Notes: generated by a model not told the origin, from the letters alone. Shown: positions 9,471 to 19,446, counted from the stretch's first letter. The stretch is DNA of 64,000 bases from Methanomassiliicoccales archaeon (GCA_046540255.1 JBKHFJ010000010.1:2928-66927), one strand, 5' to 3'. Program-made: numbers and translations.

Positions 9471-9486
9471 AAAACCCATTTATAGT
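9471..9486 (+). promoter_or_regulatory. BRE/TATA promoter of the btuFCD-cob operon
   Basis: AAAACCCATTTATAG about 60 nt upstream of the btuF ATG. Confidence 0.6.
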
Positions 9487-9503
9487 CGTACTACTATCTG
9501 GAG

Positions 9504-9524
9504 AGTTGGATTATACATCCAACT
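9504..9524. promoter_or_regulatory. palindromic operator, copy 1 (AGTTGGAT-TATAC-ATCCAACT)
   Basis: Perfect 8-bp inverted repeat with a 5-bp spacer just downstream of the TATA box; near-identical copy at 18084. Confidence 0.8.
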
Positions 9525-9542
9525 GAGGGAGGAAGAATACAG

Positions 9543-10568
9543 ATGGATTCCGGAAAGAAGAGCATGGTTCTGGTTGTAATACTGGTCGCCTTCCTGCTCA
9601 TCGGCGGTCTGGCGGTGATCCTTCAGGGGGGTGAGGATGAGGTCGATTATCCCCTTCCGGTGACCGACTCCGCCGGCAGGGAGGTGGTCATCGAATCGGT
9701 GCCCGAGAAGATCGTTTCGGCCGCACCGGCCACCACCGAACTGCTCTACTCCTTGGGAGTAGGCGATAGGGTGGTAGGGGTGACGGACTACTGCGACTAC
9801 CCGACCCGTATGGTGGAGAACAAGACCGCCGGGAACATCACCTCCATCGGCGGGTATGAGGAGCCCAGCATGGAGACCATCATCGATCTGGACCCTGATC
9901 TCGTGGTGCTCAGCGGTGACGTCGACTTTCACCAGGACATAGCGGATACCCTGGATGACATGAACATCAAGTCCCTGATCAGCTATCGCGGGGACAACAT
10001 CACCCAGATCTATCAGAACCTGAGGATGATCGGGGAGGTGTGTGACCATGTGGAGGTGGCCGACGACCTGATCTCCGACATGCAGGATCGGATCTCCTCC
10101 GTGACCGAGCGGATATCCGGGACGGGCGAAGTCTCCGTCATGCACACCATATGGATGGATCCGGTGTACACCCCGGGGAACGATACCTTCGCCGCCAGGA
10201 TCATCGGGATGGCCGGCGGTGAGATACTGTTCGATGACCTGAGCGGATGGCCCACGGTCAGCAAGGAGGAGGTCGTGGACAGGCAGCCCGAGGTAATGAC
10301 CGTAACGGCCACCCATTTCCACATGTCCCCGGAGGAGGTCATAGATTTCCTCAAGGAGGACCCCATGTGGAGCCAGCTGCCGGCGGTAAAGAACGACAGG
10401 GTGTACATCCTGGTCGATCAGGCGGAGAATATCTTCAACAGGCAGACGGTGAGGATCGTGGACGCCATAGAGCTGACCGCGGAGATACTGCACCCTGATG
10501 CTTTCGAGGTGACGCCACCCAACATCATCGGGAACGACTACCAAGAATACCTGGAGTCCCAGGTCTGA
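9543..10568 (+). CDS. btuF: corrinoid ABC transporter substrate-binding protein
   Basis: N-terminal TM anchor; KIVSAAPATTELLYSLG, VGVTDYCDYP, LPAVKNDRVY; lies in the cob cluster. Confidence 0.88.
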   Translation: MDSGKKSMVLVVILVAFLLIGGLAVILQGGEDEVDYPLPVTDSAGREVVIESVPEKIVSAAPATTELLYSLGVGDRVVGVTDYCDYPTRMVENKTAGNITSIGGYEEPSMETIIDLDPDLVVLSGDVDFHQDIADTLDDMNIKSLISYRGDNITQIYQNLRMIGEVCDHVEVADDLISDMQDRISSVTERISGTGEVSVMHTIWMDPVYTPGNDTFAARIIGMAGGEILFDDLSGWPTVSKEEVVDRQPEVMTVTATHFHMSPEEVIDFLKEDPMWSQLPAVKNDRVYILVDQAENIFNRQTVRIVDAIELTAEILHPDAFEVTPPNIIGNDYQEYLESQV

Positions 10569-10586
10569 TCGTCAGACGGTGAACCG

Positions 10587-11630
10587 ATGGAGGGCTCGGT
10601 GATAGGGAGGCGGAGAGTCCGGCTGGCACTGATACTGATGGGAGGTTCGGCCTCCCTCTTCGCCTTCTTCATAGCCTACCTTTCCGTTGGGGCGGTGGAG
10701 ATGGGTTTCATCGAGTCGATGGACGCCCTCTTCTCCTCCCTGGCGAAGGGAGGGGAGGACCTTAGCGTGAACGAGACCATCATCTACCACGCCCGTTTGC
10801 CCAGGGCCCTGGGGGTCGTGGGGGTGGGTATAGGTCTCTCCGTGGCCGGGGTGGTCCTCCAGGCGATCATCCGTAATCCGCTGGTGGACCCCTACATCAC
10901 CGGGGTCTCCTCGGGAGCCTCCCTGGGTGCGGCGTTGGCGCTGGCCGGTGGGGTGACCCTCTTCGGTTCCATGACCCTCTCCCTGCCCATCGCCGCCTTC
11001 GTTGGGGCCTCCTCCGCCTTCCTGTTCACCATACTGCTGGCCGAATCATCGGGTGGGAGACCGATCGCCTACGTCCTGGCCGGAGTGGTGGTGGGCATCG
11101 GCCTCTCCTCGTTCACCACCATACTGATGGTGTTCGCCGGCGACAGAGTTCATGGGCTGCTGTTCTGGCTCTTCGGCAGCTTCACCCCCGTGGACTGGGG
11201 GAACGTCTGCTACATCTTCCTGCCCGCCCTGGCCCTGTCCCTGGGCGTGGCGCTCTACGCCAGGGAACTCAACCTGGTGTTGCTGGGGGACGAGCAGGCC
11301 CGTCAGCTAGGTCTGCAGGTGAAGAAGTTCAAGAGGGCCATGATGGTCCTCACTTCCCTCCTCACGAGCTTCTGCGTTGCCTTCACCGGCATCATAGCTT
11401 TCCTGGGTCTGATCGTCCCCCATATCTCAAGGATACTCATCGGCGGGGACCACCGGCTCCTGCTCCCGGTCTCCTTCATTCTGGGGGCGAACATCCTGCT
11501 GGTGGGGGATATCGTGGCCAGGGTGACCATGAAGCCGATGGAGCTGCCGATCGGGGCCATCATCTCCATGATCGGCGCCCCGTTCTTCGCATACCTGATG
11601 ATAAGAAGGGGGAGAACCTATGTCGGATAA
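10587..11630 (+). CDS. btuC: corrinoid ABC transporter permease (FecCD/BtuC)
   Basis: RLPRAL, RNPLVDPYITGVSSGA, GDEQARQLG, GLIVPH, GAPFF. Confidence 0.9.
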   Translation: MEGSVIGRRRVRLALILMGGSASLFAFFIAYLSVGAVEMGFIESMDALFSSLAKGGEDLSVNETIIYHARLPRALGVVGVGIGLSVAGVVLQAIIRNPLVDPYITGVSSGASLGAALALAGGVTLFGSMTLSLPIAAFVGASSAFLFTILLAESSGGRPIAYVLAGVVVGIGLSSFTTILMVFAGDRVHGLLFWLFGSFTPVDWGNVCYIFLPALALSLGVALYARELNLVLLGDEQARQLGLQVKKFKRAMMVLTSLLTSFCVAFTGIIAFLGLIVPHISRILIGGDHRLLLPVSFILGANILLVGDIVARVTMKPMELPIGAIISMIGAPFFAYLMIRRGRTYVG

Positions 11631-12411
11631 CTCGGTCATGATCAGCATCCAGGGGGTGAGGTTCTCCTACGGGAGCGTGGAGGCCCTGAGAGGTCTGACC
11701 ATAGAGGGCAAGGAAGGGGAACTGATCGGTCTCATCGGGCCCAATGGTTCTGGGAAGTCCACCCTTCTCAGGTGCATCAACGGGATACTCCGCCCCAAGG
11801 CCGGGAGGATCGAGGTCGGCGGGAAGGAGGTCGGGGAGATGACCTCCTCCGAGATGGCGAGATTATGCGCCAATGTTCCCACCGAGTTTCCGGAGGAATT
11901 CAACCTGTCCGTCCTGGACCTGGTGTTCATGGGCCGATACCCATATGTCCAAGGCCTATGGTGGGAGAAGAGGGAGGACGAAGAGGTGGTGATGGATGCC
12001 CTGGGCAGCTTTCAGGTAAGGCATCTGATGAAACGCAAGATCAATGAGATCTCCAGCGGTGAGAAGCAGCGGGCGCTGCTGGCCAAGGCGGTGGTGCAGA
12101 GCCCCAGGGTGATGCTGGTGGACGAGCCCAGCGCCCATCTGGACCTACGATACAAACTGGAGGCCATGGAGTACCTTCGCTCTCTTCTCGACTCCGGTCT
12201 CACTATCATCGTGGCCTCCCACGACATCAACCTGCTGGCCAGGTACTGTGACCGGGTGATCATCCTGAGCAACGGGAGTATAGTATCCTTCGGCCCACCC
12301 GGAGAGGTGGTGAACGAGGGGATCATCCAGAGGGTCTACGGGGTGCAGGCCAGGGTGATCAGGGACGACGGAACCGTGTTCGTGATCCCGGACAGGAGCA
12401 TGGGGGTGTGA
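11620..12411 (+). CDS. btuD: corrinoid ABC transporter ATPase
   Basis: GPNGSGKST, ISSGEKQR, LVDEP, SHD. Confidence 0.9.
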   Translation: MSDNSVMISIQGVRFSYGSVEALRGLTIEGKEGELIGLIGPNGSGKSTLLRCINGILRPKAGRIEVGGKEVGEMTSSEMARLCANVPTEFPEEFNLSVLDLVFMGRYPYVQGLWWEKREDEEVVMDALGSFQVRHLMKRKINEISSGEKQRALLAKAVVQSPRVMLVDEPSAHLDLRYKLEAMEYLRSLLDSGLTIIVASHDINLLARYCDRVIILSNGSIVSFGPPGEVVNEGIIQRVYGVQARVIRDDGTVFVIPDRSMGV

Positions 12412-13499
12412 GCTTGGGCTGGGCAAGGGAACCGATCAGGGAACTGGAGAGGCCGAGGCACGGCGGAACGGCCTGGAAGCACGGGGCCGAGGACTTCTCC
12501 TCCAACCTGAATCCTCTCGGGCCCCCACCCGAGATCGACAGCTTGGTGAAGGAGGGCGTTAATGAACTGGACCACTACCCGGATGACCGGGCCGACTCCT
12601 TTCGGGAAGCGGTCTCGATGAGGTACGACCTGGGGACCGAAAGCGTGATCGCCGGTGCGGGCTCCTCGGAGCTCATCCGCCTCTTTGCCGAGACCTTCAT
12701 GTCCCCGGGGGAGGAGGCCATAATGCCCCATCCCTGCTTCTCCGAGTATCCCTTTTCCTGCCGGCTGATGGGGGCCAGACCGGTCTGGGTAACCCTCCGC
12801 AGAGAGCGAGGTTTCCGGCCAGATCCCCTGGAGATGCTGGAGGAGGTGGGACCCAGGACCAAGGCGGTCTTCCTCTGCAATCCGCATAACCCCACCGGGC
12901 ATCTGACTCCGAGGAAGCGCATCGAGGAGCTCCTACAGGAGCTGGAGGGGAAGTGCATGGTGTTCCTTGACGAGGCTCTGCTGGAGCTGGTCAAGGGGTT
13001 CTCCCATTACACCTGCTCCGATCTGGTGGAGGGACACGACAACCTGTTCATCATCAACTCCCTGACCAAGTCCTTCGGTTGCCCCGGGATCAGGGTGGGA
13101 TACGGGATGGGGAACCCGGGCGTGGTGGAGAGGATGGACCGGGCCAGGCTCTCCTGGAACCTGGGATGCCTGGAGCAGTGGGTGGGCAGGGGATGTCTGA
13201 TCCAGCTGTACGATCACGTGCTCAAGGCCAGAGAGATGATGCATTCGGAAAGGTCCCGGATGGCCTCCCAGCTGAAGGGTCTGGGTCTACGGATCCCCCT
13301 CCCAGACGCTTTCTTTTTCTTCGTGAACCTGGCCGAGAGCGGGGTAGAGCCAAGGGGTTTCCTTGACGAGCTGCTCTCCAAGGGCATCATGATCAGGGAC
13401 TGCTCCTCCTTCGGAATGGAGGGGCACGTGAGGTTCGCGGTGAAGACCCCGGAGAAGAACGACATGCTCATCTCCCATATGGGTGAGGTCCTGGGGTGA
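12408..13499 (+). CDS. cobD: threonine-phosphate decarboxylase
   Basis: HGG, DFSSNLNPLGPP, CNPHNPTG, SLTK, IRDCSSF; PLP class I/II enzyme in a cob operon. Confidence 0.88.
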   Translation: MSLGWAREPIRELERPRHGGTAWKHGAEDFSSNLNPLGPPPEIDSLVKEGVNELDHYPDDRADSFREAVSMRYDLGTESVIAGAGSSELIRLFAETFMSPGEEAIMPHPCFSEYPFSCRLMGARPVWVTLRRERGFRPDPLEMLEEVGPRTKAVFLCNPHNPTGHLTPRKRIEELLQELEGKCMVFLDEALLELVKGFSHYTCSDLVEGHDNLFIINSLTKSFGCPGIRVGYGMGNPGVVERMDRARLSWNLGCLEQWVGRGCLIQLYDHVLKAREMMHSERSRMASQLKGLGLRIPLPDAFFFFVNLAESGVEPRGFLDELLSKGIMIRDCSSFGMEGHVRFAVKTPEKNDMLISHMGEVLG

Positions 13500-14475
13500 T
13501 CCTCTGGATCCGTGGGTACCCCTGGCGATAGGCTTGGGTGCTCTGGCGATCGACCTGGTTCTCGGGGAGCCACCCTCCCGTCTCCACCCGGTGGTGTGGA
13601 TGGGAAGGCTGACCGGCTTCCTGGACAGTAGGATCGCCCGGGGGAAGGGGGACCTGCTCGCCGGGGCCCTCATGGCCATGGCGGTGGTCCTCAGCTTCGC
13701 TCTCCTGAGCTCCCTGATCGGACTCTTCAGACCGCTTCACCTCTCCATATGGGGGTTGGTCTGTGCGGCGGGCTTGAAGACCACCTTCGCCTTGAGGGCG
13801 TTGGGGGGATCCGTCGTCCCCATGGGAAGGGCCCTGGAGGAGGGGGACCTGGACGCGGCCAGGGAACGGGCGGCCATGCTGGTGAGCAGGGACGTCCGGG
13901 AGCTGGACCAGGGTCACCTGACCTCCTGTGCCGTGGAGACGGTGAGTGAGAACATGGTGGACAGCCTGATCTCCCCCTGGCTGTTCATGGGTGTGGGGGG
14001 CCTCCCCGCGGCCATGGCCTACCGGGCGGTGAACACCCTGGACGCCATGGTGGGCTACCGGAGTGAGCGCCATTCCCGGGTGGGATGGTTCTCCGCCCGG
14101 GCGGACGACCTGCTGAACCTGATCCCCGCAAGGCTCTCCCTGCCCTTCATCCTGATGGCCCTCCGGATCCGGGGGGGTGACTGGAGGGCTGGATGGAGGG
14201 CCGCCAGGGGCCAGCATGCGCGAACCGCCAGCCCCAACAAGGGCTGGCCGATGGCCGCCCTGGCCGGGGGCATGGGGATCCGGATGGAGAAGGAGGGACA
14301 TTACTCCCTGGGAGAGGGGGACCTTCCCCTGCCCGGCGATATCGTAGAGTGCTTTAAGGTGGTGAGAACCACCGCCCTCCTCTTCTTCTTCCTGTTCGCA
14401 CTCCCCCTCTTCGTGGTGGTGGGGATGGGAACGCAGTTGCTGATAGAGGATCTTTTGCTGGAGATGATCTCATGA
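13483..14475 (+). CDS. cbiB: adenosylcobinamide-phosphate synthase
   Basis: GEPP..HPVVWMG, LVSRD, ETVSENMVD, YRAVNTLDAMVGY, SPNKGWPMAA. Confidence 0.93.
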   Translation: MRSWGDPLDPWVPLAIGLGALAIDLVLGEPPSRLHPVVWMGRLTGFLDSRIARGKGDLLAGALMAMAVVLSFALLSSLIGLFRPLHLSIWGLVCAAGLKTTFALRALGGSVVPMGRALEEGDLDAARERAAMLVSRDVRELDQGHLTSCAVETVSENMVDSLISPWLFMGVGGLPAAMAYRAVNTLDAMVGYRSERHSRVGWFSARADDLLNLIPARLSLPFILMALRIRGGDWRAGWRAARGQHARTASPNKGWPMAALAGGMGIRMEKEGHYSLGEGDLPLPGDIVECFKVVRTTALLFFFLFALPLFVVVGMGTQLLIEDLLLEMIS

Positions 14476-15590
14476 ATGGAGACGGGTTCGGTGTGGAGTA
14501 CCATGAGGTCGAAGGATTCGAGGTGGCGGTGATCGATCTGCCCAGGGACTTCCGATTCCTGAGCTCGGCGGTCATGAACGGAGGCCTCCACTCGACCGAC
14601 AGACTGGTGATCATGCAGGTGCCGAAGAACTACGATGAGGGGGATCCCGCGGGTGTGCTGACCCGGGTCGGACGACGTCTGGGGGTGCCAAACGCCCTGG
14701 GCTTCATGACGGCGGCCAAGATCGGGAAGGTGCTCACCGTGGAACGGGCGGCGATCGATGACGTCTCAGCGACCACCGTGGTGACCGCCGGCCTGAGCAA
14801 CGCGGTGGTGGCCGGGGAGCGGTTTCCGATGTACACTCTTGCCCACACCTTCGAGGCGGGCACTATCAACACCATCTCGGTGATCGAGGCCGGCATGAGC
14901 GACACGGGGAGGGCGAATGCCATGATCACCGTGACCGAGGCCAAGACGGCCGCCCTGCGGGACCTAGGGGTGGAGGCCACCGGCACCACCACTGACTCGG
15001 TGGCCGTGGGATCCCTTCCGGGGGAGATCGATTACGCCGGGCCGGCCACCGACGTGGGGCTGGCGGTCTCCCAATCGGTGAGGAGGGCGGTATCCAAGGC
15101 CCTTCAGAAGAACGGGGACGGGCCCAGGCCGACCGATTTCGTGATGCGGTTGGAGGAGAAGGGGGTACACATGGACGATATATGGTTGGCCGCGAAGGAG
15201 CTCTACAGCCCTCACCCGGACTGGGATGAGGAAGAGGTCAGGGAGCGCTTCGAATCCCTGATGAACGGGATGAGGGAGGACGTCAACGTCAACGCAATGG
15301 TGGAGGCGGCCGTACTGCTGGACGAGAGGGGACACGCCGGCAGACTGTTCGGCCTCACCGGCAAGCAGTTCGAGGAGGACCCGGTGCACCTCCTGGCGGA
15401 CGAGATGATCGCCATGTCCCTCTCCCAGTACATCGCCGGCACGAGGGGATTGTTCGAGTACACGCGCTATGACCGCAAGAAGCCGGGGATCCTGGGGGAG
15501 TTGGACCCCTTCCTCGACGATGCCGTCGCCTGCCTCATAGGGAGTCTGATGTCCAGGATATACACCGAGCTCCTGGGGGGAAGCGTATAG
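14472..15590 (+). CDS. cbiS: bifunctional adenosylcobinamide amidohydrolase (CbiZ) / alpha-ribazole phosphatase (CobZ) fusion
   Basis: N-terminal LSSA..NGG, GFMTAA, VTAGLSN, GTIN, TEAK, ATGTTTD (CbiZ); C-terminal DPVHLLADE..YIAG..F.Y.RYDRKKPGIL..FLDD (CobZ/PgpA-like). Confidence 0.88.
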   Translation: MNGDGFGVEYHEVEGFEVAVIDLPRDFRFLSSAVMNGGLHSTDRLVIMQVPKNYDEGDPAGVLTRVGRRLGVPNALGFMTAAKIGKVLTVERAAIDDVSATTVVTAGLSNAVVAGERFPMYTLAHTFEAGTINTISVIEAGMSDTGRANAMITVTEAKTAALRDLGVEATGTTTDSVAVGSLPGEIDYAGPATDVGLAVSQSVRRAVSKALQKNGDGPRPTDFVMRLEEKGVHMDDIWLAAKELYSPHPDWDEEEVRERFESLMNGMREDVNVNAMVEAAVLLDERGHAGRLFGLTGKQFEEDPVHLLADEMIAMSLSQYIAGTRGLFEYTRYDRKKPGILGELDPFLDDAVACLIGSLMSRIYTELLGGSV

Positions 15591-16378
15591 GCGCTCTCAG
15601 GGCCCTGTTCTCCCTCTTCACCCTGCTACCGGTGCGGTCGGGGGAGAGGGATCTTGAGGCTCTGTGGGAGCGACCTTATCTCCTGCCGCTTATCGGGGCG
15701 GTCTTCGGTCTCACCATGATGGGGGTCCTCTATCCACTGTCCCTGATCCTCCCGCTCCTTGTGGCCGCCCCCTGCGCCCTCTTCGCAGTGCACCTGTTGA
15801 ACCGGTTCCTTCACTTCGACGCACTATTGGATCTGGGGGATGGCCTGGTCGCCCATGGGGACCGGGGGATGAAGGTGCGGGCGATGAGGGACAGTGGGGT
15901 GGGCGCCGGGGCCATGGCCTTCGCGCTCTTCTTCACCCTGATGACCGTGACCTCCCTCTCCACCCTACCCGATCATGCCCTGATCCTCCTCCCATTCGGG
16001 ATGGAGATACTCTCCCGGGTCTCGATGGTCGCATGCGTCGGCCTGGGTGATCCAAGGGAGGGGCTTGGGAAGATGATTGTTTCCCGCACCCGCTTCCGGG
16101 CCGTCATTCCATCGGTGGCGCTCTCCCTCGCTCTCCTCTCGCCCCTTCTCTTGATGACACAGGCCTGGAGCGCCTCTTATATCCCCCAGACGATCGCCGC
16201 CTTCTCCGTCCTGGGCATGATCAGCGTGATCGTCGGGGGCACTATGGCTTCCCTCTCCCAGAGGAGTTTCGGCGCGGTTTCGGGTGACGTCATAGGGGCC
16301 ACAAATGAGATATCCCGCTTAGTTCTCCTGGTGATGGGCACGGTGGTGATGGATTGGATGGTTTCGATGCCCTGGTGA
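15587..16378 (+). CDS. cobS: cobalamin synthase (adenosylcobinamide-GDP ribazoletransferase); probable ATA start at 15587 (first canonical start 15632)
   Basis: LHFDALLDLGDG, MRDSGVGAGA, GAVSGDVIGATNE; the typical N-terminus ALRALFSLFTLLP lies in frame upstream of 15632. Confidence 0.88.
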   Translation: MGALRALFSLFTLLPVRSGERDLEALWERPYLLPLIGAVFGLTMMGVLYPLSLILPLLVAAPCALFAVHLLNRFLHFDALLDLGDGLVAHGDRGMKVRAMRDSGVGAGAMAFALFFTLMTVTSLSTLPDHALILLPFGMEILSRVSMVACVGLGDPREGLGKMIVSRTRFRAVIPSVALSLALLSPLLLMTQAWSASYIPQTIAAFSVLGMISVIVGGTMASLSQRSFGAVSGDVIGATNEISRLVLLVMGTVVMDWMVSMPW

Positions 16379-16962
16379 CCGCGGGAGGAAGGGGCTCCAG
16401 ACTCCAGTGCATGGGCAGGGAGAAGCCCATGATCCCGGTCGGGGGAAGGCCGATGATCCGTTGGGTGATCGATGCCCTGGCCGGTTGCGAGAAGGTGGAA
16501 CGCACGGCCATATCCGTCAGCAGGCACACTCCACTCACCCAGGCCGTGCTCGAGGGGGAAGGGTTCGAGGTCGTCCAGACCAGCGGGGATGGATACGTTT
16601 CTGACCTGCGGGAGGCCATGTCCCGCCTGGGAGGTAGGATGGTGTTGGTCATCCCGGCAGACCTTCCCCTGATTAGGACGGAATTGCTGGATATGCTTTT
16701 GGAGGAGCACATCGCCAGAGGAAGGGACTCCCTGGCGGTGGTGGTCCCGGCGGATCTCCTCCAGGCGCTGGGATTCCACTACCAGTACGATTTCTCACTC
16801 GGTGGGAGGCGGGTGGTGAACTGCGGGGTGAGCGTGGTGAACCGGGAGGCGCTGGTATCGGGGGCCCTCCTGGATGAGGGCCACCTGGAGAGCTCGGATA
16901 TCGCTTTCGCCCTGAACGTCAACGGGCCCAGCGAACTGGTCATGGTGGAGCGCCTGCTCTAG
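16354..16962 (+). CDS. cobY: GTP:adenosylcobinamide-phosphate guanylyltransferase
   Basis: AGGRGSRL, EKPM, GDGYVSDL, PADLP, NVN. Confidence 0.88.
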   Translation: MDGFDALVTAGGRGSRLQCMGREKPMIPVGGRPMIRWVIDALAGCEKVERTAISVSRHTPLTQAVLEGEGFEVVQTSGDGYVSDLREAMSRLGGRMVLVIPADLPLIRTELLDMLLEEHIARGRDSLAVVVPADLLQALGFHYQYDFSLGGRRVVNCGVSVVNREALVSGALLDEGHLESSDIAFALNVNGPSELVMVERLL

Positions 16963-18053
16963 CGCCCATGGCAGAGGTCCTGGTAGTTCTCCTCGATCCT
17001 GGACAGCATCACCTCCATGTCCAGGTCCCCTTTGGAACTGGCAACGGCGGCGATGGTGGTACCCCCGGCCCCCACTCCCTCCTTGACCACTCCCTCCTCG
17101 TAGACCCTAAGCCCATGGTATCTGGAACCGGAGAAGCTCAGGCCGGAGGCGAGGACGGGCACCCGGGCGCACTGGGCCACCAGGTCCAGGATGTCGGACT
17201 CTCGGTCATCAATTATCCATTTAGTGGTGCCCAGCGCCAGGTTGCCGAGCACAGAGGGATCGATCCCCTTTACCACCGCCAGGACGGCGCACATCTGGGT
17301 CCCCCCGGAGAGCAGAACCGGTATCCTGGAGGCCGCCCCGACGGCCAGGCCGGCGGCGGCGGGTATCATGGGGTCGCCCACCGCCTCGATCGCCTCAAGC
17401 GGGTGGGGGTCCTCCTCCAGACCGGAGTCCGAAATGGCCCTCTGGACCACCTCGGCCTTGAGCGGGTGAGGGTTCTTCGGGAGGCTGCTGCTCACCTTGC
17501 CATCCGCATCGTAGCCGAGTGCTGCCAGGACGGCCAAGGCGGTGGTGGTACCCCCGGCGACGCTCTCCCCCAGGACCAGGTAATCGGACATTCCTGCCAG
17601 GGAGCGGCCAAGCTGGACGGCCCTTCCGAACACTTCCTCCGTTCCCTGGACGGCGGGTCCGGTGGTCCGGATGTCTGAGCCTCCCTGACCTCCCAGGTCC
17701 ACGTAGGGCGTCTGGGGTCGGACGAAGGTGCCACCGTTCACCACCATGGTGGGCATGTCCGTCAACTGCAGGGCGGACATGGTGATGATGGCCGGTGTGG
17801 GTATGCCATCGGGGGTGACCGGTACCCCCTCTATGCTGCGGCATCGGCCGTACAGTAGAAGCTCCATGTCCGCCGCTGGGGTCCTGTCGGTGATCTCCGG
17901 CACGGCCCCTGCGGCGGAGAGCCCCGGGATCTTGGCCGTCTCGGTGTTCCCGATGGTGCAGGTGAATACCGGTCTCCTCCCCCATATATTGCTCAGGAAT
18001 TCTTCGCCCCTCTCCTCATCGGCAAAGACCCTTATCGAATCTGGAATGTTCAT
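16959..18053 (-). CDS. cobT: archaeal-type nicotinate-nucleotide:lower-ligand base phosphoribosyltransferase
   Basis: TETAKIPGLSAAG, TPAADME, GIPTPA, GESVAGGTTTA, GDPM, GGTQM, VKEGVGAGG; start adjusted to ATG at 18053. Confidence 0.9.
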   Translation of the reverse strand: MNIPDSIRVFADEERGEEFLSNIWGRRPVFTCTIGNTETAKIPGLSAAGAVPEITDRTPAADMELLLYGRCRSIEGVPVTPDGIPTPAIITMSALQLTDMPTMVVNGGTFVRPQTPYVDLGGQGGSDIRTTGPAVQGTEEVFGRAVQLGRSLAGMSDYLVLGESVAGGTTTALAVLAALGYDADGKVSSSLPKNPHPLKAEVVQRAISDSGLEEDPHPLEAIEAVGDPMIPAAAGLAVGAASRIPVLLSGGTQMCAVLAVVKGIDPSVLGNLALGTTKWIIDDRESDILDLVAQCARVPVLASGLSFSGSRYHGLRVYEEGVVKEGVGAGGTTIAAVASSKGDLDMEVMLSRIEENYQDLCHGR

Positions 18054-18083
18054 TCTAAGCGCTCCACGGCATACTTCGTTTCG

Positions 18084-18104
18084 AGTAGGATTATACATCC
18101 AACT
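18084..18104. promoter_or_regulatory. palindromic operator, copy 2 (AGTAGGAT-TATAC-ATCCAACT) in the cobT promoter
   Basis: One mismatch to the copy at 9504; 30 nt upstream of the cobT ATG and downstream of a minus-strand GAAACCATTATTG BRE/TATA-like element. Confidence 0.8.
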
Positions 18105-18229
18105 GATACCCTGAGAGGCAATAATGGTTTCGGCGGAGCTCCGAGCGAGGGGGATCATCGTTGCGCATACGAGGTGGGCGGCGGGTCCATCCACCTCCAG
18201 CACCACCCCCTTCCGCTCGATGAAAGGGC

Positions 18230-18412
18230 ATGGTCTGGATAGACGGGGAGATCGGAGCCAGTATCGAGGAGCTGGCGTTCTACTACAAGCTATTCAGGGA
18301 GATGGGTCCGGAGGTGGTGCCCTCCGATGATCCCGAGGATACCTGCGAGGTATGTGCCCCTCGGACTGATGGGAAGTTCTGCAGGACCCGCGACTCCGAG
18401 ACTCAACGGTAG
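18230..18412 (+). CDS. small hypothetical protein with CxxC motif
   Basis: 60-aa ORF with protein-like composition and CEVC...C; fills the gap between cobT and the AlkP gene. Confidence 0.45.
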   Translation: MVWIDGEIGASIEELAFYYKLFREMGPEVVPSDDPEDTCEVCAPRTDGKFCRTRDSETQR

Positions 18413-19446
18413 AGGAGGTCGAGCAGCTGGAAGAGGGGGACATGGCCGGAGGAGGTCTCCTTGAAGCTGATCTCCGCCGTGTCCCCGATCCCCTCGGCGA
18501 CGGCGAACGGCACCGGCTCGGTAAGATGCTGGCCGGTCAGTGAGGAGGCGCCGTGGTCAACGGTGAGGGAGATGCGCACCCCCTCTATCCCGTCCAGGTA
18601 CCTCTCCATCACCTTGTCCACCTCCTCCAGGAACTCCAGCTTCTTGTCCGGCTCCCTCTTGTGGCTGACGTCGTCTATCTCCTCCATGTGGAGGAGCACG
18701 TCCCTGGTCTCCAGGGCCTCCACGGTACCGCGCAGCCTCTGATCCAGATCGTCCACCCACACCTTCTCCATTCCCAGGAGGGCGCCGATGCCCAGGGCGG
18801 AAGGGCTGTTGGAGTAGACGGTCATGTTGCCGAACTTCTCCCTCAGGTCCCGGTACTCCTGCACGAGCTCGCCCCTTCCCCCCTGCCAGGGCAGCTCCGC
18901 GATGCCGCAGGTCTCCTTCGATACACCCTCCACGAAATCCCTGAACTCCCCCAGGCGGTTCATGTCCAGGTACGTGTTCACCGGGGGAGAGGGAAGGTCC
19001 AGGGGCGCCTCGGACCTCAGGGTGATCACCCCCTTCCCCTCCTTGTAGTAGCGCATCTCCGGATCGTGGGGCAGGAGCAGGTCCCAGTTGTCCGCCACCG
19101 CCCGCTTCAACTCCTCCACCTCCTGCGGGGTGATGTTGTAGCCCCACTCCATCCAACCGTCCCTGATCATGGCGGGGGAGAGGCGGTAGGCCACCTTGCC
19201 CGGGGGCACCTCGAGGTCGAAGCCCAGGGTCTCGATCAGCCCCCTGGGCAACTCCCCTTCCCGCTGGCTGAGAAGCCCCAGCAGGTAGAGGTGTGTGTAG
19301 CTGGAGGCGTCCGTGCAGCCGAACCGTCCGGAGGAGGTGATCCGGTCGATGAACGGCTTCTCGGCTGCCTCCAGGGGGGTCCGGCCCCCCAGCTGCGGTA
19401 TCCTCTCGTCGGTGGCCCCGTCAAGGAGAACGATCAGGTTCCTCAT
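18403..19446 (-). CDS. cofactor-independent phosphoglycerate mutase-like metalloenzyme (AlkP superfamily), divergent
   Basis: LLDGATD..LGGRTPLEAA, EEIDDVSH, TVDH, H..EPVPF; canonical PGSD motif not conserved. Confidence 0.8.
   Translation of the reverse strand: MRNLIVLLDGATDERIPQLGGRTPLEAAEKPFIDRITSSGRFGCTDASSYTHLYLLGLLSQREGELPRGLIETLGFDLEVPPGKVAYRLSPAMIRDGWMEWGYNITPQEVEELKRAVADNWDLLLPHDPEMRYYKEGKGVITLRSEAPLDLPSPPVNTYLDMNRLGEFRDFVEGVSKETCGIAELPWQGGRGELVQEYRDLREKFGNMTVYSNSPSALGIGALLGMEKVWVDDLDQRLRGTVEALETRDVLLHMEEIDDVSHKREPDKKLEFLEEVDKVMERYLDGIEGVRISLTVDHGASSLTGQHLTEPVPFAVAEGIGDTAEISFKETSSGHVPLFQLLDLLYR

Follow-up and report, generated by a model that had tools for sequence, protein, structure and literature searches.

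Two nearly identical palindromes, located in the promoters of a corrinoid-salvage operon beginning with btuF and of the adjacent, oppositely oriented cobT gene of a Methanomassiliicoccales archaeon (GCA_046540255.1, contig JBKHFJ010000010.1), are very probably operators of a protein-controlled vitamin B12 regulon. The protein that reads them is probably a 194-amino-acid (aa) winged-helix protein with a C-terminal DUF4443 domain, encoded on another contig beside a third copy of the site. The combination of B12-regulon operators, a DUF4443 reader and repression is, as a whole, the best explanation of the data, with a probability that we place at about 0.7. The stretch of DNA analyzed, hereafter the window, covers 64 kb (G000:C10:2928-66927) of a genome, G000, of 1.84 Mb with a [G + C] content of 62%, assembled in 44 contigs and 99.8% complete.

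Copy 1 of the palindrome, GAGTTGGATTATACATCCAACTGA, lies at 9503-9526 and copy 2, GAGTAGGATTATACATCCAACTGA, at 18083-18106, the two being identical at 23 of 24 positions. Their core is an 8-5-8 inverted repeat, AGTTGGAT-TATAC-ATCCAACT, which is perfect in operator 1 (9504-9524; 32.5 bits in the genome scan described below), and shows a single arm mismatch (TAGGAT) in operator 2 (18084-18104; 27.1 bits), giving AGTAGGAT-TATAC-ATCCAACT. Operator 1 overlies the position where transcription is expected to start. It is flanked on one side by TTTATAG, a TATA box (9479-9485, plus strand) preceded by a purine-rich GAAAA resembling a B recognition element, and on the other by the btuF start codon (ATG at 9543); 20 nucleotides (nt) separate the end of the TATA box from TTGGAT, and a Shine-Dalgarno-like GGGAGG follows at 9527-9532 (plus strand). 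On the minus strand, operator 2 stands 30 nt upstream of the cobT ATG (18053), the weak TATA-like CATTATTG (18119-18126, minus strand) being found 16 nt upstream of TTGGAT in the cobT orientation. These promoter elements were read from the sequence, and CATTATTG is the weakest call among them. A search of the window for the 21-mer with up to three mismatches returned only these two places, and none of 100 dinucleotide shuffles gave a match. A shorter degenerate pattern with two mismatches was found twice for 1.8 expected, which is not unusual by itself, so that the weight rests on the full-length identity of the copies and on the evidence presented below. The original prediction, made from the window alone, is therefore confirmed for the two 24-mers and their inverted repeat, for the lack of a further copy in the window and for repressor-like positions between a TATA-like element and the start codon at both btuF and cobT. 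The names it gave to btuF, cobT and the other genes of the cluster are backed by Pfam and NCBIfam, and its statement that the cluster encodes no transcription factor holds for the window; the scan of 17 open reading frames (ORFs) between 7001 and 21889 revealed none for a DNA-binding protein.

Searching the whole genome for TTGGAT-N5-ATCCAA, one mismatch being tolerated and the spacer required to be A+T-rich, retrieved four sites, namely the two of the window, C9:25005-25021 and C13:19745-19761. These score between 27.1 and 38.6 bits with a symmetrised matrix, the next best place in the genome reaching 20.0 bits and the reversed genome 16.8 bits at most. Each of the four is located no more than 100 nt upstream of B12 genes, the promoters concerned being those of btuFCD-cobD-cbiB-cbiZ/cobZ-cobS-cobY, of cobT, of cbiA-cobQ and of an operon for a beta-propeller protein, a DUF4430 protein and an energy-coupling factor (ECF) transporter. 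The C13 site precedes cbiA, itself followed by a zinc-finger-like-cobQ gene, by 39 nt. At C9, 24 nt separate the site from a gene for a secreted beta-propeller/PKD protein of the pyrroloquinoline quinone (PQQ) type; downstream of this gene come those for the DUF4430 protein, for CbiQ as the ECF T component, for a double ECF ATPase and for a membrane protein resembling an S component. The second Peripla_BP_2 gene of the genome carries no site. All four recognisable operons for corrinoid acquisition and finishing thus appear to be under one signal. CbiC had no match in this genome, which therefore probably belongs to an organism living on imported corrinoids.

The motif is largely conserved among relatives. 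The exact TTGGAT-N5-ATCCAA was found in 54 of the 61 genomes of the order (G000 included), with 1 to 18 copies each, compared with 1 of 61 for the reversed control. In a sample of the phylum, matches were present in all 24 genomes of the same order and in 1 of 14 from other orders of the class; outside the class, 43 of 162 genomes had an exact match (4 of 162 in the control), many of these matches being tRNA arms or having G+C-rich spacers. The extended consensus derived from 31 sites is tAGTTGGATG-WWW-CATCCAACTa, a 9-3-9 arrangement whose central base is always A or T.

The genes next to these sites were first considered in a sample of one locus per genome, the first returned (n = 29), for which 46 of the 58 flanking ORFs were scanned, short overlapping ORFs being dropped. 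Sixteen of these loci adjoin genes for Peripla_BP_2 (8 loci), a PQQ-type propeller (2), CobQ, CbiX/SirC, CbiM, CbiM-CbiN, CobN or a corrinoid protein. A census of all 16 exact sites of five genomes gave nine that clearly belong to B12, cobalt or tetrapyrrole promoters (CbiMNQ; a FecCD operon; ABC transporter plus precorrin methylase, twice; divergent CobN genes; SirC-HemA; CbiMN; CbiK; and the btuD|cobD-cbiB junction) and two ambiguous ones, at a ribonucleotide reductase and at an ABC ATPase. In two larger genomes (G050 and G008), the sites flank FecCD/ABC, CobN, ChlI/ChlD, CbiC, HemA, CbiG and propeller plus BtuF operons, and no transcription factor was found among the 59 ORFs scanned in their B12 clusters. 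The dyad is situated at or just downstream of a TATA box, is repeated at functionally related promoters and rare elsewhere, and is conserved at orthologues, as expected of an operator. This conservation upstream of cob, btu and cobalt genes, together with the genome scan, supports the original proposal of one operator shared by the genes for corrinoid uptake, salvage and lower-ligand activation. Among the individual loci, one (L277, G017:C7:59526) has an exact site 50 nt upstream of a gene for the barrel domain of a ribonucleotide reductase, which connects the regulon with an enzyme that may be B12-dependent or replaceable by a B12-dependent one, by analogy with the B12 riboswitches of bacterial nrd genes.

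The candidate reader, a protein of 194 aa, is encoded directly ahead of the C9 site (G000:C9:24312-24896) and combines a winged helix of the CggR/PH0730 type with DUF4443 as its C-terminal domain; its gene directly follows that for S-adenosylmethionine (SAM) synthetase and ends 109 nt before the site. DUF4443 (PF14544) is recognised with 99.3 bits for a cut-off of 27 and CggR_N with 38 bits for a cut-off of 30, the winged helix-turn-helix corresponding to PF22167/PF21715. The structure model of the protein, with a mean confidence (pLDDT) of 90.9, matches that of PH0730 (PDB 2P8T) with a Foldseek E-value of 4.6e-12 and a TM score of 0.67-0.70, in line with the sequence match (E-value 8.5e-12). 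Its N-terminal domain superposes on the DNA-binding domain of CggR solved on its operator (7oyk) with a root-mean-square deviation of 1.3 A over 65 columns. A profile search returned 1264 representative clusters at E<=0.001, and the literature searched contained neither a function for the DUF4443/PH0730 family nor a description of the site or of its regulator.

It is the position and the co-occurrence of this gene with the site that make it a candidate. Within the order, a site is directly preceded by a DUF4443 gene in G000, G002, G003, G007, G019, G031, G035, G042, G055 and, for a one-mismatch site, G015; a scan of genome contigs listed 80 DUF4443 loci, all from close relatives (79 bear titles of Methanomassiliicoccales-type or Thermoplasmata-type archaea and one, L259, is titled Prevotella hominis). 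DUF4443 being present in 60 of the 61 genomes of the order, a phyletic test within it is uninformative, and co-occurrence was evaluated on 72 genomes of the same class but outside the order. The exact core is found in 21 of the 24 DUF4443-bearing genomes, nearly always as one copy, and in 5 of the 48 genomes without DUF4443, where all five matches are inside ORFs and three have G+C-rich spacers. In ten of these outside-order genomes, the sole genomic copy follows the DUF4443 gene at a distance of 46-321 nt, and where the context was read the gene order is SAM synthetase, DUF4443, site and propeller/DUF4430/DUF6580. In one family (L142-L144), the sole site does not adjoin the regulator gene and is still upstream of DUF4430-DUF6580. 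A genome of another class of the phylum (G090) presents the order SAM synthetase, DUF4443, TTGGATTATTCATCCAA, DUF4430 and DUF6580; among the 30 loci fetched outside the class, L098 is the only one with an adjacent DUF4443-like gene. This distribution points to a class-wide cis-element, the ancestral target of which would be the DUF4430/ECF corrinoid-uptake module and which would have spread over the B12 pathway in the Methanomassiliicoccales.

These results bear on the trans-acting regulator of the original prediction in two ways. The palindromic promoter operator of the protein type is retained, and a putative transcription factor gene next to a site, the DUF4443 gene of contig C9, shows phyletic co-occurrence with the motif. 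The DtxR-family metalloregulator offered as a candidate is not supported, none of the four DtxR genes of the genome (on C12, C14, C22 and C8) being near any of the four sites, and the present candidate lies on another contig, beside the third site.

Most genomes of the order also encode a second paralogue of about 320-350 aa that combines the winged helix-turn-helix, DUF4443 and DUF2111. A sister dyad, ATGGAT-N5-ATCCAT, is present in 53 of the 61 genomes of the order (1 of 61 in the control), and in at least 12 of them it separates the TATA box of this long paralogue from its start codon; in G000, it is found at C5:18297-18313, the gene of the long paralogue being at C5:17339-18289 on the minus strand. 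A member of the family having a near-identical dyad on its own promoter, the family as such appears to go with [A/T]TGGAT-N5-ATCCA[T/A] dyads, and would read sites of this type.

Several observations weigh against this interpretation. The matrix and the consensus were built from sites found by a fixed core and are thus ascertained. The DUF4443 gene adjoins a site in only 10 of the 78 loci of the order with enough downstream DNA (6 of 30 in a smaller set), so that in most families of the order the link between the two is only in trans, and the gene is present in all seven genomes of the order that have no exact site. Its most constant neighbour is the SAM synthetase gene and not a B12 gene, so that its place beside the site could simply have been inherited as synteny; kin, moreover, are not independent in the adjacency counts. 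Outside the order, 5 of the 21 co-occurring matches also look like chance hits in ORFs, which leaves 16 with A+T-rich spacers, 11 of them read as promoter sites, four placed beside the gene by coordinates only and the last one in G271, and the co-occurrence could partly reflect one cluster gained or lost as a unit. The 194-aa protein has no match to the B12-binding domains PF02310/PF02607 at E<=0.01, and its DUF4443 domain, which has no known ligand, resembles the insertion (GAD-like) fold of aspartyl-tRNA synthetase. Finally, 13 of the 29 sampled loci have no recognisable B12 neighbour (two tRNA anticodon arms and 11 other or unknown genes), and 5 of the 16 census sites are likewise at unknown or unrelated genes.

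Two rival readings concern the nature of the element itself. Chance similarity or a functionless local duplication could be suggested by the presence of just two copies in the window, identical also in the non-palindromic spacer and in the flanks; this is refuted by the shuffles, by the two further copies at B12 promoters on other contigs and by the conservation of the motif (54 of 61 related genomes and 1 of 61 in the control). A more substantial question is whether the palindrome acts as DNA or, once transcribed, as a hairpin with which the mRNA would begin, controlling its stability or translation or forming a small riboswitch-like element. In 20 promoters with an identified downstream gene, their TATA boxes being judged by eye, a TATA-like octamer ends 6-29 nt before TTGGAT, and 20-26 nt before it in 14 of the 20; an automated A+T profile around the sites was too noisy for TATA placement, owing to spurious ORFs that yielded both orientations, and the promoters were read by eye for this reason. 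In archaea, the transcription start is usually found some 23-27 nt beyond the TATA box. The dyad would therefore cover the start site, the classical position of an archaeal repressor, and transcripts starting at the usual distance would begin at or just before the palindrome, a point in favour of an RNA element. The btuF leader may also form an 8-bp hairpin (-9.2 kcal/mol, z -2.35); this hairpin leaves the Shine-Dalgarno sequence free, however, and the cobT leader folds no better than its shuffles (z 0.27). Rfam returned no family at gathering score over the whole window and, at E<=1 between 9000 and 19000, no cobalamin riboswitch and only two chance-level eukaryotic families, in agreement with the absence of riboswitch stated in the original prediction. 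In an alignment of eight promoters, the mean column identity is 42% and the only invariant block is formed by the palindrome arms. The arm sequence is also invariant across classes, and the four deviating sites that were met (operator 2, one in G015 and two in L207) alter one arm with no compensation. Because the arm sequence is fixed, the deviations are uncompensated, the cobT fold equals shuffles and Rfam is empty, a protein rather than an RNA is indicated; a role of the RNA is made still less likely by the cbiA promoter, where the dyad begins 6 nt after the TATA box and transcription should start beyond the greater part of it, and by the occurrence of sites at divergent promoters and as tandem pairs 29-35 nt apart. 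An RNA hairpin is thus very improbable. Three other identities of the palindrome were considered and discarded: a terminator of the upstream gene, as no T-run follows the site and divergent promoters also carry sites; a TATA box at the palindrome centre, as separate TATA boxes occur at the canonical distance; and a dif/Xer site or mobile-element end, as the site is multi-copy and restricted to promoters.

The identity of the reader and of its signal is more debatable. The sites could be true operators of a B12 regulon read by another factor, of the DtxR family or not, the DUF4443 gene being a syntenic neighbour of one target. The four DtxR-family genes of the genome, the rarity of DUF4443 genes beside sites in the order, the constancy of the SAM synthetase partner and the presence among the targets of the cobalt transporters CbiMNQ, which would suit a metal sensor, are in favour of it. 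It is nevertheless rather improbable, given that no DtxR gene is near a site, that the exact core accompanies DUF4443 in 21 of 24 genomes and occurs in 5 of 48 without it, that several orders and another class again show a single-copy site beside a DUF4443 gene, that the paralogue has the sister palindrome on its own promoter, and that the regulon spans the whole pathway of uptake, salvage and biosynthesis and not metal transport only. With the same reader and the same sites, the signal could also be cobalt or the SAM/methionine status of the cell instead of a corrinoid. Such a signal would account for the conservation of the SAM synthetase-DUF4443 pair throughout the order and beyond it, in further orders and a second class, for the cobalt uptake and chelatase genes of the regulon and for a protein devoid of a recognisable B12-binding domain; it fits less well with a regulon that mirrors the bacterial B12-riboswitch sets (corrinoid uptake, salvage, amidation and lower-ligand attachment) or with a genome lacking CbiC and probably fed by imported corrinoids, and we consider it unlikely, albeit less so than another reader.

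The winged-helix DUF4443 protein therefore remains the probable reader of the palindrome. From the sites, which are placed in promoters, conserved, and enriched at B12 genes, and from their genomic and phyletic link with this gene, we infer binding, repression and a corrinoid co-repressor, which would operate as follows. The 194-aa protein, co-transcribed with SAM synthetase, would bind the operator, probably as a dimer, which is deduced from the dyad symmetry alone; seated beyond the TATA box by roughly one TATA-to-start distance, it would block the recruitment of RNA polymerase or initiation and thus act as a repressor. A corrinoid would be the co-repressor, in an end-product feedback comparable to that of bacterial cobalamin riboswitches; whether the effector is indeed a corrinoid is in our opinion an even bet. 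A broader and more tentative reading, which we would not favour at present, joins the two paralogues: DUF4443/PH0730-like proteins would be unrecognised archaeal cofactor regulators acting at [A/T]TGGAT-N5-ATCCA[T/A], the short form as a B12 sensor-repressor equivalent, as a protein, to the cobalamin riboswitch, at first switching the single operon of a DUF4430/ECF corrinoid importer in non-methanogenic relatives and then extended to the whole B12 pathway in Methanomassiliicoccales, and the long DUF2111-fused form as a regulator of methanogenesis (mcrBDGA, the A2-like ATPase, corrinoid methyltransferase systems and F430 synthesis).

Concerning the long form, its gene in G000 is divergent from a gene for a double-ABC (A2-like) ATPase. 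Copies or variants of the sister dyad occur just upstream of the mcrB TATA box in the same genome and at L150, L160 and L161, and others upstream of the TATA box of genes for corrinoid proteins, of a URO-D/MtaA-like gene and of a NifH-like (CfbC-type) gene; the loci recorded are G000:C5:18297-18313 and G000:C5:11313-11329 and, in relatives, L150-L161, L169, L171 and L175. The long paralogue may be a regulator of methanogenesis genes and, if this is true, the dyad at mcr promoters would provide a first handle on the transcriptional control of methanogenesis in this order.

The genes of the propeller, the DUF4430 protein and the DUF6580/ECF S-like protein constitute a conserved module under the operator, found at G000:C9:25046-30540 and at L022, L024, L121, L128-L131, L142-L146 and L098. 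DUF4430 is the C-terminal domain of transcobalamin-type B12 binders (PMC4350170). The module looks like an undescribed archaeal system of corrinoid capture and import, and its co-regulation with B12 genes gives this uncharacterised propeller/DUF4430/DUF6580-ECF transporter a probable role in corrinoid uptake. The propeller recalls, by function only, the surface B12 binder BtuG of Bacteroides.

To our knowledge, the sensing of B12 and its control are essentially unknown in archaea, which lack cobalamin riboswitches, and the only lead is a "CBL-box" which Rodionov et al. reportedly predicted in 2003 (in J Biol Chem) as the binding site, in certain archaea, of a B12 regulator that was itself hypothetical, no regulator protein being named. 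Like the present site, it is a DNA signal upstream of archaeal cobalamin biosynthesis or transport genes proposed as a riboswitch substitute, a likeness that concerns the general description; the order Methanomassiliicoccales had no genomes at that time. The bacterial cobalamin riboswitch (RF00174) has the same target functions (corrinoid and cobalt uptake, corrin biosynthesis and salvage) and presumably the same feedback logic, but is an RNA sensor in the mRNA leader, whereas a short DNA dyad at the promoter is found here. PH0730 of Pyrococcus horikoshii (2P8T), to which the candidate is similar in sequence and fold, has itself no assigned function; the transcription factors listed for P. furiosus include it only as the label of a family (PMC6316755). 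The likeness to CggR concerns the N-terminal DNA-binding domain, the sugar-phosphate-binding SorC domain of CggR being absent from the candidate. CarH/CarA offers the example of a protein repressor, CarH, with corrinoid-dependent DNA binding, a dependence that would be shared by the candidate. CarH is, in contrast, a MerR-type light sensor with a PF02310 B12-binding domain, and the candidate has neither domain and targets B12 acquisition genes; a CarH-type system was rejected, the candidate lacking a B12-binding domain. DtxR/IdeR operators resemble the site as palindromes over uptake-gene promoters and differ from it in that no DtxR gene is near any site; the half-site TTGGAT is also unlike what we take to be the consensus of the DtxR box. 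TrmB (VNG1451C) of Halobacterium salinarum, an archaeal transcription factor whose many targets are reported to include cobalamin biosynthesis genes (PMC2710871), belongs to another protein family and is sugar-responsive, with a broad metabolic regulon as opposed to a dedicated B12 regulon.

The present analysis supplies a defined operator, a map of the regulon (in this genome, uptake, salvage, amidation and lower-ligand activation) and a named candidate protein with a solved homologue, 2P8T. The Methanomassiliicoccales, methanogens of the gut and rumen, rely on corrinoid methyltransferases for their energy metabolism, which makes their B12 economy relevant to methane mitigation.

The genes of the window placed under the two operators are as follows. 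Operator 1 precedes, on the plus strand, genes for a btuF-type substrate-binding protein (9543-10568; Pfam Peripla_BP_2, 4.6e-40), whose NCBIfam matches are under the curated cut-offs (92 bits for BtuF NF002894, cut-off 234), a btuC-type permease (10587-11630; FecCD, 1.5e-83) and a btuD-type ATPase (11620-12411; ABC_tran, 2.5e-26). They are followed by a cobD-like gene for a threonine-phosphate decarboxylase of the class I/II aminotransferase fold (12408-13499; Aminotran_1_2), the top NCBIfam match of which, CobD TIGR01140, reaches 219 bits and is under its cut-off of 290, and by cbiB for adenosylcobinamide-phosphate synthase (13483-14475; CobD_Cbib, 5.1e-84). The next gene (14472-15590; CbiZ and PgpA) is a fusion of cbiZ with a PgpA/cobZ-like phosphatase, forming a CbiS-like bifunctional enzyme just under the NCBIfam cut-offs (232 bits for bifunc_CbiS, cut-off 250; 140 bits for CobZ TIGR03161, cut-off 152.5). 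The series is completed by cobS for cobalamin-5'-phosphate synthase (15632-16378; Pfam CobS, 5.6e-32) and by a cobY-like nucleotidyltransferase gene (16354-16962; NTP_transf_3, the NCBIfam CobY model being under its cut-off). Under operator 2, on the minus strand, cobT (16959-18053, start at ATG 18053; Pfam DBI_PRT) encodes a lower-ligand phosphoribosyltransferase of the archaeal type, over the cut-off of the NCBIfam model TIGR00303 CobT (383 bits for 240).

Some minor observations were made on the genes surrounding the site and its candidate reader. In five loci of one genus (L057, L059, L064, L069 and L074), a stretch that resembles only the last codons of SAM synthetase was noted by eye upstream of the short DUF4443 gene, which suggests a relic of a rearranged SAM synthetase-regulator operon. 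Two genomes (G029:C1:304820-414808 and G060:C1:1820546-1848592) contain 7-8 DUF4443 matches, of which several form clusters and some are truncated, indicating a local expansion. In the window (18107-18402), a gap of about 350 nt separates cobT from the next minus-strand gene, of the Metalloenzyme superfamily (18403-19446); a plus-strand ORF of 60 aa with a CxxC...C pattern is located there (18230-18412), and may be either nothing or an unannotated small protein.

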